DNA from: Bacteroidetes bacterium OLB10
GTDB lineage: Bacteria; Bacteroidota; Bacteroidia; AKYH767-A; OLB10
Direction of reading: 5' to 3'
NCBI GenBank assembly: GCA_001567275.1
Contig: LNBX01000025.1
Span: 77,454-141,453, forward strand
DNA length: 64,000 nt
The notes under the pieces: model-generated
Database searches by the model: none
What the model saw: the letters and a program-made list of their open reading frames with translations, nothing else
What the model was told of the DNA's origin: nothing
Translations under genes and position numbers: made by a program
Part shown: one piece after another, positions 24,179-28,235 of the stretch
Numbering within the stretch: position 1 is the stretch's first letter
Layout: every line of letters starts with the position of its first letter

Positions 24179-24949
24179 ATGTCAAAACCCACTATTTTAG
24201 TTGTTAATGATGATGGCATTTCGGCACGCGGCATTCGTGCGCTGGTTGAAGCCATGAAAGAAATCGGAAATGTAACTGTGGTTGCTCCCGACAGCCCTCA
24301 ATCGGGTATGGGGCATGCCATCACCATACACAATCCATTGCGGCTCGACAAAGTTGATATTTTCAAAGATGTGGATGCCTGGCAATGCAGCGGCACGCCT
24401 GTTGACTGTGTTAAACTTGCAGTGAACAAAATTCTCAATCGCAAACCTGATATCTGTGTAAGTGGAATCAACCACGGCAGTAATTCTTCGATCAACGTAA
24501 TTTACTCAGGCACCATGTCGGCAGCTATGGAAGGAGCCATTGAAGGAATTCCGAGTATTGGTTTTTCACTGGTAGATTTCAATCTGGATGCCGACCTCAC
24601 TGCTGCAAAACATTATGCAGGGCTTATTACACGAACCGTGCTTAAAGGTGTACACTGGAAGGAGTTGTTGCTGAATGTAAACATCCCCAATCTGCCACTG
24701 AATGAAATGAAAGGAGTAAAAATCTGCCGTCAGGCAATGGCCAAGTGGAAAGAAGAGTTTGAAGAAAGACAGGATCCAAGCAAGCAAAAATATTTTTGGC
24801 TCACCGGTAAGTTTATCAATCCTGACTTGGGCGAAGACACTGATGAATGGGCTTTGGCAAATGGTTATGTATCGGTAGTTCCGGTAGAATTTGATTTCAC
24901 GGCTCACCATGCCATTCCGCGCCTCAACAAACTGTCATGGAATGATTAA
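24179..24949 (+). CDS. surE: 5'/3'-nucleotidase SurE
   Basis: 256 aa. N-terminus ILVVNDDGI..G is the SurE hallmark. Confidence 0.9.
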   Translation: MSKPTILVVNDDGISARGIRALVEAMKEIGNVTVVAPDSPQSGMGHAITIHNPLRLDKVDIFKDVDAWQCSGTPVDCVKLAVNKILNRKPDICVSGINHGSNSSINVIYSGTMSAAMEGAIEGIPSIGFSLVDFNLDADLTAAKHYAGLITRTVLKGVHWKELLLNVNIPNLPLNEMKGVKICRQAMAKWKEEFEERQDPSKQKYFWLTGKFINPDLGEDTDEWALANGYVSVVPVEFDFTAHHAIPRLNKLSWND

Positions 24950-25226
24950 ACGCATCCCCGATAATTTTCATACCGGTGTGTGGATTGCCGCAGTTGTTTC
25001 TGCACTTTCATATTTTATTATTGAATGGGCTGAGCCGATGATACAACATTCAGCAGCGTCTAAATACATTGCTTTTCCGAGATTATATTTCATGGTGTTT
25101 GCACTGCAGATTTTTGTATTGCGTTTGGCAATGGTCAACTGGCATAAGCACCGTTTTGCACAGGGTTGGATATTCACGGTGTTTATCTTTGCATTATTTA
25201 TTTTTTATCTGATTAAAAAAAGATAA
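24942..25226 (+). CDS. small membrane protein, possibly the N-terminal half of a gene split by an A7 frameshift
   Basis: Hydrophobic, about 94 aa from MIKRIP. Its stop lies 1 nt before the next ATG, beside the A7 run at 25215-25221. Confidence 0.4.
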   Translation: MIKRIPDNFHTGVWIAAVVSALSYFIIEWAEPMIQHSAASKYIAFPRLYFMVFALQIFVLRLAMVNWHKHRFAQGWIFTVFIFALFIFYLIKKR

Positions 25227-25227
25227 C

Positions 25228-25515
25228 ATGTCACAACGAAATCAGTTTTTAGCAGGATTTGCAGGCGGGCTGTTGGCGCCCTTGCTCGGATTTTATCTTT
25301 ATTATATTTCATTTTTCAGGCAGATGGACATCATTGCATTTTTTTATGCACTGCAAAACAACAATACCCTTGCTGCTGCCATCAGCCTGAGTCTGCTGGC
25401 AAACCTTGCACTGTTTTTTATACTGGACCGCTATGGAAAACTGAGAGCAGAACAGGGAGTGATTGCCGCTACTTTTATCTATGGATTTTATATACTTTAC
25501 CTTAAATTATTCTGA
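25228..25515 (+). CDS. small membrane protein, possibly the C-terminal half of the same gene
   Basis: 95 aa, three TM helices. With A6 instead of A7 it would fuse in frame to the preceding ORF (…YLIKKDNMSQRNQ…). Confidence 0.4.
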   Translation: MSQRNQFLAGFAGGLLAPLLGFYLYYISFFRQMDIIAFFYALQNNNTLAAAISLSLLANLALFFILDRYGKLRAEQGVIAATFIYGFYILYLKLF

Positions 25516-26668: not shown

Positions 26669-27208
26669 GTGAAAACTAAAATATATTTCATTCTCGCAGC
26701 CATGATTTTGTCAGGCACGTCCTGTATGAAACAGGAAGCCGAAACAGACAATATACCGCAGGCTGCTGCAAGTTGTGATGACGGCATCATGAATCAGGGC
26801 GAAACAGATATTGACTGCGGTGGCCCCTGCCCTGTTTGTCTGGGCAACATCACAGCCGAGGTTGATGGTGCTGATTTTAATGCAGCTTCAGGAACGATAT
26901 CGAGTTTTTACAATAATGGTTCTTTTTTTATGACCGGCACTTCTACACCGGGTTCATTGTCGTTGATTTATTCAGGTGCGTTAACCACCGGCACTTATGC
27001 CAACTGCCAGGGGATGTTTACGAGCAGTTCTACATCTCAGAGTTATATAACAAACAATGCCACTGTTACTTTTACTTCTTTCAATTTTACGGATAGTGTA
27101 GCTGCAGGAACTTTTCAGTTTGATGCCATTAACTTAAATGTTGCTCCTCCTGATACTGTTCATATAACCAACGGTCAGTTTAAGAGAATTTCTTTTAAGA
27201 AAAATTAG
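26669..27208 (+). CDS. secreted lipoprotein with Cys-rich N-terminal module (DIDCGGPCPVC) and Thr/Ser-rich body
   Basis: Lipobox LSGTSC. The last 7 codons (RISFKKN) are encoded by the left direct repeat of the adjacent islet. Confidence 0.5.
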   Translation: MKTKIYFILAAMILSGTSCMKQEAETDNIPQAAASCDDGIMNQGETDIDCGGPCPVCLGNITAEVDGADFNAASGTISSFYNNGSFFMTGTSTPGSLSLIYSGALTTGTYANCQGMFTSSSTSQSYITNNATVTFTSFNFTDSVAAGTFQFDAINLNVAPPDTVHITNGQFKRISFKKN

Positions 27209-27215
27209 GTGGGTT
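27185..27215. repeat. left 30-bp direct repeat (AGAATTTCTTTTAAGAAAAATTAGGTGGGT) bounding the tRNA-proximal islet
   Basis: 30/31-nt identity with 28055-28085, one T/C mismatch. Confidence 0.85.
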
Positions 27216-27231
27216 GTTTACGTCTTACACC

Positions 27232-27327
27232 CAACAGTTCCGCAGTACTGCGGAATGCCGGGAGTCAGGTGATTCATATCCTGCGCGCACCCGTAGCCCT
27301 AAAGGGCGCTGGCGCGCTTCGAATATG
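27232..27327. repeat. ~96-bp GC-rich palindromic repeat element, copy 1 (contains the 18-bp palindrome TTCCGCAGTACTGCGGAA and a GCGCGC…GCGCGC stem-loop)
   Basis: Near-identical copy at 27603-27707. Partial copies of the palindrome core lie at 27729-27756 and 28004-28033. Confidence 0.8.
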
Positions 27328-27424
27328 AACTATGCAAAGAAAAGTTCTATTTTGATGTTGCTCTTATGGAGCTTAATAAACTATGCAAAGAAAAGTTCTA
27401 TTATGATGTTGCTCCTACGGGGCA
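27328..27424. repeat. tandem duplication, 2 x ~51 bp (AACTATGCAAAGAAAAGTTCTATT…)
   Basis: Two adjacent copies start at 27328 and 27379 and are about 90% identical. Confidence 0.8.
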
Positions 27425-27431
27425 TATTTTC

Positions 27432-27515
27432 TGCAATGAAAATCCAATAGACCAAATCGTTTATGAACTTTACGAGTTGACGGAAGAGGAAATAAAAATT
27501 GTGGAAAGCCACTAA
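27432..27515 (+). pseudogene. vestigial 3' end of a DNA methyltransferase/type IIG restriction-modification gene (C-terminal tail ENPIDQIVYELYELTEEEIKIVESH)
   Basis: 27 codons between stop codons. The tail matches the conserved C-terminus (…VYELYGLTEEEI.IVE) of Eco57I/PglX-type N6-adenine methyltransferases. No upstream coding body remains. Confidence 0.45.
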
Positions 27516-27602
27516 ACAGACAGAATTGCCAACGCTTCACAGCCTCGCAATTACTCATTAATACACCCAGCAAGAGGCAAGCTCTTGTTGACGTAAACAA
27601 CC

Positions 27603-27707
27603 CAGCCGTTCCGCAGTACTGCGGAATGCCGGGAGTTAGGGGAGTCAGGTGCTTCATATCCTGCTCGCACCCGTGGCCCTAAAGGGCGCTTACGCGCTTT
27701 GAATATG
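27603..27707. repeat. GC-rich palindromic repeat element, copy 2 (9-nt internal duplication relative to copy 1)
   Basis: Direct repeat of 27232-27327. Preceded by CGTAAACAACCC, the inverted copy of GGGTTGTTTACG at 27211-27222. Confidence 0.8.
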
Positions 27708-27756
27708 TTGCGCGTTGATGAACAACTCAGCAGTTCCGCAGTACGAGATGCCGGGT

Positions 27757-28003
27757 TGCAATTACTCAAAGTGGGAAAAATTTTCAAAAGTAATTGACAA
27801 AGCAAAATCTGCTTGCGAAGCCAGCGGAATTGTAGTGAAATATCATTTTCCTGATGTCGGGAAAATGGTTGATATTGGCAATGGAACACAGCGACCGGTT
27901 GAAGACCTAGCCCTCACAAGATACGCCTGTTATCTTGTTGCTCAGAATGGCGACCCGCCAAAAAGTGAAATTGCATTTGCTCAAACATTTTTTCTAACAC
28001 CCG
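27757..28003 (+). pseudogene. truncated DinD-like (DNA-damage-inducible protein D family) gene fragment, both ends replaced by palindromic repeat copies
   Basis: Internal region KSACEASGIVVKYHFPDVGKMVDIGNGTQRPVEDLALTRYACYLVAQNGDPPKSEIAFAQTFF matches the DinD core (ACEAS…KMV.LGSG.QRE.EDV.LSRYACYLVVQNGDP…QTYF) from memory. The N-terminal ~35 aa and the C-terminal half are absent. Confidence 0.5.
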
Positions 28004-28054
28004 GCATCCAGAAGTACTGCGGAATGCCGGGTATCAGACAACGGGTGTCAGACA

Positions 28055-28085
28055 AGAATTTCTTTTAAGAAAAATCAGGTGGGTA
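28055..28085. repeat. right 30-bp direct repeat bounding the islet
   Basis: Pairs with 27185-27215. Confidence 0.85.
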
Positions 28086-28161
28086 GATTAGTGTGTTATT
28101 TGCCTAAGAAGAAATCATAATAAAAATGGCTGCCTTAATTGAATAAAGCAGCCATCGGCAG

Positions 28162-28235
28162 TAGCGAAGGGGGGAATCGAACCCCCGACCTCAGGGTTAT
28201 GAATCCTGCGCTCTAACCACCTGAGCTACCTCGCC
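28162..28235 (-). tRNA. tRNA with CAT anticodon (Met elongator or Ile2-lysidine type), 74 nt, CCA not encoded
   Basis: Reverse complement gives GGCGAGGTAGCTCAGGTGGTTAGAGCGCAGGATTCATAACCCTGAGGTCGGGGGTTCGATTCCCCCCTTCGCTA. Canonical D-arm (GTAGCTCAG..GGTTAGAGC), anticodon loop TTCATAA and T-arm GGTTCGATTCC are present. Confidence 0.8.

Follow-up and report, generated by a model that had tools for sequence, protein, structure and literature searches.

Introduction

REPtrons reportedly consist of a RAYT (REP-associated tyrosine transposase, TnpA_REP) gene flanked by its cognate hairpins, which are repetitive extragenic palindromes (REP) or bacterial interspersed mosaic elements (BIME); the arrangement is said to have been described by Nunvar in 2010, by Bertels and Rainey in 2011 and by Ton-Hoang in 2012. 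In this study, such units and other small mobile elements are compared with an 870-bp segment lying between a lipoprotein gene and a tRNA-Met(CAT) gene of Bacteroidetes bacterium OLB10, within a 64,000-nucleotide stretch of contig LNBX01000025.1 (assembly GCA_001567275.1) that is referred to below as the window. We conclude that this segment is probably the non-functional debris of a small composite mobile mosaic, inserted just after the stop codon of the lipoprotein gene. There is no indication that it has any present function.

REPtrons have been summarised in the survey of Quentin et al. (2018; PMC6006769), which also describes TnpA_Y1 subclass 1.2, a low-copy group known from Bacteroidetes and Cyanobacteria that has no REP and, as a rule, no IS200-type ends. 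Palindromes tagged with GTAG provide an example of the intergenic palindromes of the REP/BIME type, or resembling miniature inverted-repeat transposable elements (MITE), that are known from bacterial genomes (PMC3733652).

The locus shares features with each of these systems, and differs from all of them. In sibling alleles of the segment, a single-locus gene for a Y1 HUH protein is bracketed by inverted short GC-rich hairpins, with clustered copies beside it, as in a REPtron. However, the encoded protein is not a class 2 RAYT (its Y motif is Y---Q--HH), the hairpins form a head-to-tail array of 51-bp units rather than inverted doublets, and the window allele has lost the Y1 gene; a single Y1 locus with inverted cognate hairpins is thus found in the sibling alleles only. 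The protein resembles TnpA_Y1 subclass 1.2 in its length (~150 aa), its motifs (DH[IV]H, WQ and YI.NQ..HH), its low copy number and its Bacteroidetes host, but conserved inverted upstream hairpins and downstream arrays, present in five lineages, do not agree with the published description of this subclass (PMC6006769). One sub-lineage also carries a methyltransferase 3' stub. With the IS200/IS605 elements it has in common a Y1 transposase fold, scoring above the NCBIfam cut-off, and small subterminal hairpins. In contrast to these elements, the gene is confined to a single locus, its flanking hairpins are inverted instead of co-oriented, tnpB is absent, a tandem array is attached, and the only duplicate Y1 copies are decayed ones adjacent to the intact gene at the same locus (L056 and L076; L-numbers denote comparison loci, and nearly all comparison sequences are metagenome assemblies).

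The setting is also reminiscent of genomic islands bounded by attachment (att) repeats at tRNA genes: the insertion has direct repeats of about 30 bp, lies by a tRNA gene, is variably present in relatives (an empty site was found in the close relative L067) and contains scraps of defence genes. It differs from them in that the repeat is derived from the 3' end of a protein gene, no integrase was found, and the size is only 0.9-1.9 kb. Finally, the hairpins are modular, GC-rich and intergenic, with compensatory stem variants, and in the core of one module (H2) a hairpin is immediately preceded by GTAG (CCGTAG-CCC-TAAA-GGG), which likens them to the REP, BIME and MITE-like palindromes. Unlike these, they have no identified terminal inverted repeats with short target duplications, their apparent copy number is low, and one type of stem (P) combines conserved arms with interchangeable centres of three types.

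The insertion site

The original prediction described a 0.9-kb segment without intact genes, enclosed by near-perfect direct repeats next to a tRNA(CAT) gene, and this anatomy was borne out. The two repeats are identical at 33/36 positions, their 30-mer occurs at these two sites only within the window, and none of the open reading frames (ORFs) listed for the 870 bp between them is a complete gene. The left repeat encodes the last 7 codons of the lipoprotein gene and its stop codon (the last 24 nt of the gene), as had been proposed. Since all lipoprotein orthologues share the same ending, ...KRISFKKN followed by the stop codon, or a close variant of it (e.g. ...KRISIKNN), the left repeat is native as far as it is coding.

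The relative L067 is 93.5% identical to the window species over 4.2 kb upstream, and contains the repeat sequence only once. In the alignment, this single copy is followed by GG.GGT...TTAG.GTGTTATTT.CCTAA.AAGAAA, i.e. by the flank of the window's right copy, which identifies the 870-bp segment as a true insertion with a duplication of ~31 bp of target. Further insertions are present in L067 downstream of the single repeat.

The target that was duplicated belongs to the lipoprotein gene, being its 3' end, and not to the tRNA gene. The direct repeats copy the last 24 nt of the former together with the next 7-12 nt, and the 3' end of the tRNA is not their source; the 75-76 bp that separate the right repeat from the tRNA gene contain the tRNA's own terminator hairpin, and both gene and terminator are untouched. 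Microhomology was detected at the two junctions: GGGT.G.TTA on the left, between the start of the first hairpin (H0) and native GGGTAGATTA, and CGG.T.TCAG on the right, between the module tail CGGGTGTCAG and the lipoprotein sequence ACGGTCAG. A 2x14-nt tandem repeat (CGGGTATCAGACAA/CGGGTGTCAGACAA), situated at 28028-28055, abuts the right direct repeat and partly resembles the ACGGTCAG sequence upstream of the left repeat. The GC profile of the segment was uninformative, as the GC-rich hairpins alone stand out.

In more distant relatives the same interval is occupied by a Por_Secre_tail gene (L033, 84% lipoprotein identity), a 295-bp AT-rich spacer (L037, 73%), the shared terminator only (L052, 58%) or a glyoxalase gene (L047, 56%). 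The interval is a tolerant convergent spacer, which collects insertions. The Por_Secre_tail gene of L033 (335 aa; L033:4800-6100) is itself placed between 62-nt direct repeats (79% identical) with CAAGAGCCTGCCTCTTG hairpins that are related to window positions 27567-27583. A candidate second copy of the window's direct repeat in L033 was rejected, because its best match (9/27 mismatches) was no better than noise in L037.

Allelic variation of the segment

Alleles were compared on public contigs which encode the LpxB protein of the window and have identical or near-identical flanking genes, with lengths measured between fixed anchors. Allele A, that of the window, has 1010 bp, was found in at least 6 independent assemblies, lacks the Y1 gene and contains two 51-bp units. 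The Y1 gene is present in allele D (1687 bp; L040, L041 and L043) and allele C (1808/1809 bp; L039 and L042), both with 6 units, and in allele B (1912 bp; L005), with 9 units. The short allele is represented by, for example, GCA_041393295.1, and the Y1 alleles by GCA_029558995.1 and ERZ27286469. The alignment showed that allele A equals a long allele minus 0.7-0.9 kb, comprising the Y1 gene and most of the units. The deletion junction falls inside a 42-bp stretch (window 27325-27366) that is common to a unit upstream and a unit downstream of the Y1 gene.

The 2x51-bp tandem duplication mentioned in the original prediction therefore exists, its two units being 88% identical (TRF did not report them), but it is the stump of a Y1-associated repeat array rather than a separate duplication. 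We infer that, in the window strain, two array units recombined, with loss of the Y1 gene and of most other units.

Variation among strains is not limited to the array. Allele D is without 121 bp of hairpin module set 2 and has a perfect 38-nt palindrome in its place, an indel that represents neither a clean insertion nor a clean excision. The presence, order, orientation and number of modules all vary among strains of this one species. Contigs frequently break at the locus (L009, L010, L034-L036, L045 and L046), and two others contain a scaffold gap (L006 and L044).

A deviating arrangement was observed in L076:1-4600 (GCA_002070515.1, ADurb.Bin141). Its tRNA side is from the same species, and to the left of the Y1 gene there is a decayed second Y1 copy with its own upstream hairpin array. 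The left part encodes four ORFs, of 331 aa (CarboxypepD_reg) and then 169, 271 and 140 aa; it shares 98% identity with the PorV-adjacent contig L070, and 92% with the sequence that follows the lipoprotein gene in L067. Either the DNA was truly rearranged in this way, or the metagenome assembly is chimeric.

The Y1 cassette and the methyltransferase stub

In the longer alleles the Y1 HUH gene, encoding 153 aa, is flanked by inverted hairpins of the form GCYCC-TAC-GGRGC and followed by the array of 6-9 units of 51 bp. The protein matches Pfam Y1_Tnp (E=2e-28) and exceeds the cut-off of the NCBIfam IS200/IS605 model (72 bits, cut-off 55), while remaining far below that of the RAYT model (24.7 bits, cut-off 80); it has no PADLOC match. 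Its motifs DHIH, WQ and YINNQEQHH correspond to those of TnpA_Y1 subclass 1.2 (PMC6006769). A 99% variant of the protein occupies the same single locus in 23/23 contigs carrying this variant.

The layout recurs in five lineages (L005/L040, L054, L056, L057 and L058), whose Y1 proteins are 86-100% identical. In each of them, hairpins of the GCCCC-GTA-GGGGC type stand upstream of the Y1 gene, and 1-8 GCYCC-TAC-GGRGC hairpins in the opposite orientation, spaced by 25-57 nt, begin at its stop codon. The array units carry GCTCCTACGGAGC with a 5' TATGATRTY flank. Such a REPtron-like layout of subclass 1.2 Y1 genes is absent from the 2018 survey (PMC6006769), and no later paper on it was found in the literature searched. 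A CRISPR-like reading of the array, as a 27-nt repeat with a 24-nt "spacer", was rejected, since there are only three spacer types and these are tandemly repeated.

Directly after the last array unit lies the fragment that had been taken for the C-terminus of an Eco57I/PglX-type methyltransferase. This identification was confirmed by hidden Markov model searches, in which residues 24-48 of the 49-aa ORF at 27366-27515 correspond to the last 25 residues of the PADLOC models for methyltransferases of type IIG restriction-modification (RM) systems (E=2e-6) and, less significantly, to PglX (E=0.018); the ORF has no Pfam or NCBIfam match. The N6_Mtase catalytic domain and the target-recognition domain are absent and only the last 25-27 residues are present, so the sequence belongs to type IIG RM or PglX as a fragment.

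The proposal that a methyltransferase gene was eroded in place was not supported. The junction of the stub with the last array unit is the same in the window species, L056, L057, L062 and L075, at 82-94% nucleotide identity. The Y1 proteins of L056 and L057 are 88% identical to that of the window species, and in L062 and L075 the cassette adjoins sequences of the PorV locus, not the lipoprotein gene (both contigs end inside the Y1 gene). Because the stub-array junction recurs in the same form in other genomes and at other loci, the stub appears to have arrived with the cassette: it is most likely real methyltransferase sequence that represents cargo of the Y1/repeat cassette rather than the product of decay in place, and as cargo it need not have decayed at the window site.

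In L075 the stop codon of the stub overlaps the start codon (TGATG) of a 288-aa ORF, which amounts to translational coupling. This ORF (L075:4179-5045, minus strand) has several hydrophobic stretches, and no match was found for it in Pfam, NCBIfam or PADLOC. In a BLAST comparison, positions 3977-4024 of L075 match window positions 27528-27575, and the scar left by deletion of the 288-aa ORF is also visible in L062. In a further contig (L056:1-2640; JGI 3300001605 Draft_10001769), two units, each composed of spacer, Y1 gene, hairpins and stub, stand in tandem behind an intact 1235-aa type IIG methyltransferase, the first Y1 gene being decayed. Each stub tail repeats the methyltransferase's own tail, suggesting that the 3' end of the methyltransferase gene received an insertion or recombined unequally.

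Hairpin modules and the dinD fragment

The palindrome TTCCGCAGTACTGCGGAA is present exactly at 27238 and 27609; at 28007 it has 3 mismatches, and at 27733 only half of it is found, in agreement with the two full and two partial copies originally noticed; the 3 matches compare with 0.03 expected by chance. A GC-rich 68-nt extension following the first two copies is 91% identical between them. The element is modular: a short hairpin, H0 (GGGTTGTTTACRTCTTACACCC), leads to a long stem with conserved arms (ACACCCAGCA...TGCCGGGWGT), and this to H2, with the core CGCACCCGTRGCCYTARAGGGCGC. The centre of the long stem is interchangeable and exists in three types, being either the palindrome TTCCGCAGTACTGCGGAA or one of two unrelated sequences.

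The repeat is not unique to this site. A scan of 185,579 species genomes for the exact 19-mer yielded 18 stretches, with 3 and 4 per genome in two metagenome-assembled genomes (MAGs) of Bacteroidia, and a metagenome scan for the H2 core yielded 14 stretches. The comparison loci contain 29 distinct versions of H2, often in tandem or mixed clusters; L028 combines H2, a CAAGAG hairpin, H0 and the palindrome beside porV, and a compensated variant of the palindrome, TCCCGCAGTACTGCGGGA, is present in L016 and L068. These data support the assignment of the palindrome to a dispersed, undescribed family of modular hairpin repeats (REP/MITE-like) of Bacteroidia MAGs. The suggestion of an undescribed MITE/REP-like family is upheld in respect of dispersal and of the lack of any Rfam match. 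As to MITE structure, the modules recur in varying order and orientation, and neither target-site duplications nor terminal inverted repeats were recognised.

In folding, the hairpins outperform shuffled controls (z from -1.9 to -6.6). Pairing of the inner 4-bp hairpin is seen in 100% of the 29 H2 copies, whereas the outer stems are not maintained, and covariation over the whole of H2 is weak, barely above shuffled and slid controls. H2 as a conserved RNA was accordingly not supported by the structured-RNA test on these copies. The tRNA was the only match to Rfam 15 in the window, and four module-rich loci gave none.

As regards a phage origin, one stray palindrome match and no H2 match were obtained in IMG/VR, and there was no match in the phage collection; plasmids gave only unrelated tnpA and dinD genes (66-70% identity). 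An interpretation as integron attC sites was rejected, because the arms ACACCCAGCA/TGCCGGGTGT are without the RYYYAAC/GTTRRRY cores and the enclosed sequences are gene fragments. Tandem arrays of related sequences were seen elsewhere. In a Dysgonamonadaceae MAG (L014:4340-4530), the palindrome GTTCCGCAGTACTGCGGAA and the variant GTTCCGCAACGCTGCGGAA follow each other by turns in a 42-bp tandem array. In L071 (1100-1450), L073 and L069, the H2 core is repeated head to tail every 55 nt (CGCACCCGTAGCCCTAAAGGGCGCAGACRCAATAATTTTTTTACACATGCCTCC) and lacks the outer stems that accompany it in the window.

The third constituent of the segment had been described as a DinD-like core truncated at both ends at repeat copies, and the searches agree with this. 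The 231-bp piece matches NCBIfam NF008573 with E=1.6e-35 over profile positions 37-114 of 288, and palindrome copies bound it at 27757/27763 and 27993/27994. With 122.9 bits against a cut-off of 242, and 25.2 against 25.6 for Pfam Bro-N, the homology is clear but extends to an internal fragment only. The closest dinD gene is that of L029 (87% nucleotide identity over 27763-27993), where it has a PLD/SNF2 helicase gene on one side and a gene for an 1105-aa MmeI/Eco57I-type methyltransferase on the other, within a defence-type island from a different member of the Bacteroidota; no closer full-length gene was found among 5.8 billion clustered proteins. The dN/dS ratio between the piece and the L029 gene is 0.19, a value owed mostly to divergence at a time when both copies still functioned, and no guide to the age of the decay. 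In the comparison loci the piece is known only from this site in this species, where it may be left over from a former resident or have been captured.

Features of the locus

The features of the locus are listed in Table 1. Farther upstream (24942-25515), two small conserved ORFs (94 and 95 aa, without Pfam match) lie between surE and lpxB in every relative examined; the first of them overlaps the end of surE.

Table 1. Features of the lipoprotein-tRNA interval (window coordinates)
Feature	Position	Strand	Basis and remarks
Lipoprotein gene, 179 aa	26669..27208	+	ORF list; weak NCBIfam Riean_0653-family match; orthologues
Left direct repeat	27185..27220	+	Native end of lipoprotein gene plus GGTGGGT, running into first hairpin module
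Hairpin module set 1: H0 (GGGTTGTTTACGTCTTACACCC), P1 long stem, H2	27209..27331	+	Modules also in L028, L063, L069, L071 and L075
P1 long stem of set 1: ACACCCAACA-GTTCCGCAGTACTGCGGAA-TGCCGGGAGT		+	Repeat search, fold
H2 of set 1: TTCATATCC...CGCACCCGTAGCCCTAAAGGGCGC...GAATATGAA		+	Repeat search, fold
Two leftover 51-bp units, hairpins GCTCTTATGGAGC and GCTCCTACGGGGC	27325..27426	+	88% identical; repeat search and allele alignment
Type IIG methyltransferase C-terminal stub, NENPIDQIVYELYELTEEEIKIVESH then stop codon	27435..27515	+	PADLOC; abuts last array unit
Spacer after stub, scar of deleted 288-aa ORF	27516..27566	+	Comparison with L075
Hairpin module set 2: CAAGAGgcaagCTCTTG hairpin, inverted H0 piece, P2, H2', P3-like half palindrome	27567..27757	+	
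Internal dinD (BRO-N/DinD) fragment, 77 codons	27763..27993	+	NCBIfam; no stop codon, no frameshift
Degenerate palindrome P4 (ACACCCGGCA-TCCAGAAGTACTGCGGAA-TGCCGGGTAT) and 2x14-nt tandem CGGGTRTCAGACAA	27994..28055	+	Repeat search, fold
Right direct repeat	28055..28090	+	Continues into native post-lipoprotein sequence of L067
Intrinsic terminator of tRNA gene	28125..28156	-	Conserved in L037, L033 and L052
tRNA-Met(CAT), intact	28161..28235	-	ARAGORN; Rfam tRNA, 65.6 bits

Discussion

The anatomy of the segment, its alleles, the single-copy repeat of the close relative, the joint occurrence of cassette and stub elsewhere and the scattered distribution of the modules are direct observations. 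They are probably best explained by a mosaic of three parts, which would have inserted into the convergent spacer facing the tRNA-Met terminator and duplicated about 31 bp of target. One part would be a REPtron-like cassette composed of the Y1 gene, the upstream inverted GCCCC-GTA-GGGGC hairpins, the downstream 51-bp array (GCTCC-TAC-GGAGC) and the hitch-hiking stub; another, the multi-hairpin modules (H0, P and H2) that are present also at other loci and in other Bacteroidia MAGs; and the last, the 231-bp internal dinD piece boxed by two palindrome copies. An earlier deletion would have removed the 288-aa ORF after the stub. Later, recombination between two 51-bp units would have eliminated the Y1 gene together with all but two members of the array. 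This direction of events is a reconstruction, as is the agent presumed to move the pieces, which may be the Y1 enzyme or recombination between modules, and as is the origin of the 31-bp duplication, which could lie in att-type integration or in microhomology-mediated template switching.

Several points weigh against this reading. No transposition or excision event was directly observed, and the duplication that gave the direct repeats may have arisen in more than one way. The array hairpins have no further copies elsewhere in the window and the modules are confined within it to this locus, so their copy number per genome may be low. In L076 the Y1 cassette is joined to different left-hand genes. 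A single defence operon, formerly present at the site, could have left both the stub and the DinD scrap. Moreover, the comparisons were made almost entirely with metagenome assemblies.

The last-but-one of these points leads to the explanation favoured by the original prediction, according to which an integrase-borne island of RM type or of the bacteriophage exclusion (BREX) type integrated at the tRNA gene, with the repeats as attL and attR, and decayed in place, palindromes later mediating the deletions that left the methyltransferase tail and the DinD core. We consider this unlikely, although parts of it stand: direct repeats of 31-36 bp do bound an insertion absent from L067, and both gene scraps are real. 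It also draws support from the nearest dinD gene (L029, 87% at the nucleotide level), which neighbours an MmeI/Eco57I-type methyltransferase gene in a defence island, from the operon-like TGATG coupling of the L075 stub to its downstream ORF, and from the position of the L056 cassette behind an intact type IIG methyltransferase. However, the target was the lipoprotein gene and the repeat is not tRNA-derived, and the shared stub-array junction in other genomes and loci argues that the stub came with the cassette. The gene order is stub then DinD here, as opposed to dinD then methyltransferase in L029. The four allele types, the L076 arrangement and five relatives (L067, with 93.5% nucleotide identity, and L033, L037, L052 and L047, with 84, 73, 58 and 56% lipoprotein identity) yielded no integrase or recombinase gene, and no RM/BREX island or longer RM remnant either. 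The expected intact RM/BREX island between tRNA-Met and the lpxB side was likewise not found in related genomes; the larger alleles carry the Y1 gene and hairpin array, and no defence genes.

For the origin of the duplication alone, a possible but less favoured account is that the repeats form the core of an att-type integration of a circular mosaic by a recombinase acting in trans. Near-identical 30-mers lie exactly at both ends of the insertion, the sequence is single in the close relative, and the left copy preserves the lipoprotein frame and stop codon. On the other hand, there is no recombinase gene within +/-10 kb in the window species or in any allele, the mosaic occupies another locus (PorV) in L062 and L075, whose contigs end inside the Y1 gene, and the microhomology between junctions and modules fits template switching or illegitimate recombination equally well. 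The product of an att-type excision may be recognisable as the lipoprotein stop codon joined directly to GGTGGGTAGATTAG, without the insert.

It is very improbable that the hairpin modules are selected functional non-coding elements, such as terminators or insulators, small RNAs or protein-binding sites. Their folding relative to shuffled controls, the compensated variant TCCCGCAGTACTGCGGGA, the inner H2 hairpin paired in all 29 copies and a location between convergent genes, which would suit terminators, all speak for a function, but there is no Rfam family match, H2 covariation is weak and the outer stems are not kept. In addition, the tRNA has its own conserved terminator, L052 and L037 have no modules at all, and strains of one species differ in the presence, order, orientation and number of the modules. 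An artefact of assembly, in which the 51-bp array collapsed and the Y1 path was lost in a mixed population, might be suspected from the frequent contig breaks and scaffold gaps at the locus, and yet we regard it as the least credible explanation of the short allele: the same length of 1010 bp recurs in independent assemblies from ENA, NCBI MAGs and JGI, and collapse of repeats does not yield the loss of 460 bp of unique coding sequence.

A broader but speculative view, to which we give little weight at present, is that subclass 1.2 Y1 genes, hitherto taken to be immobile and devoid of REP, are the engines of hairpin-guided cassettes (Y1 gene and GCYCC-TAC-GGRGC array). One lineage of these would home into the conserved 3' end of type IIG methyltransferase genes, where ...VYxLYxLTxEEI... 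is encoded, bringing a surrogate 3' end with it. This lineage would be able to amplify in tandem (L056 and L076) and to carry adjacent hairpin modules and gene scraps to new loci, the window holding a spent landing site.

To conclude, the segment in the window is decaying non-coding DNA, for which an annotation as genes or as a defence island would be inappropriate. The short stub of a defence gene beside a tRNA gene may be cargo of another mobile unit, and is not proof that an island formerly existed there. The undescribed family of modular hairpins marks rearrangement-prone intergenic sites in wastewater Bacteroidia. Finally, the finding that the poorly characterised subclass 1.2 branch of Y1 HUH proteins, known from Bacteroidetes and Cyanobacteria, has conserved cognate hairpins and arrays makes its presumed DNA substrate testable.

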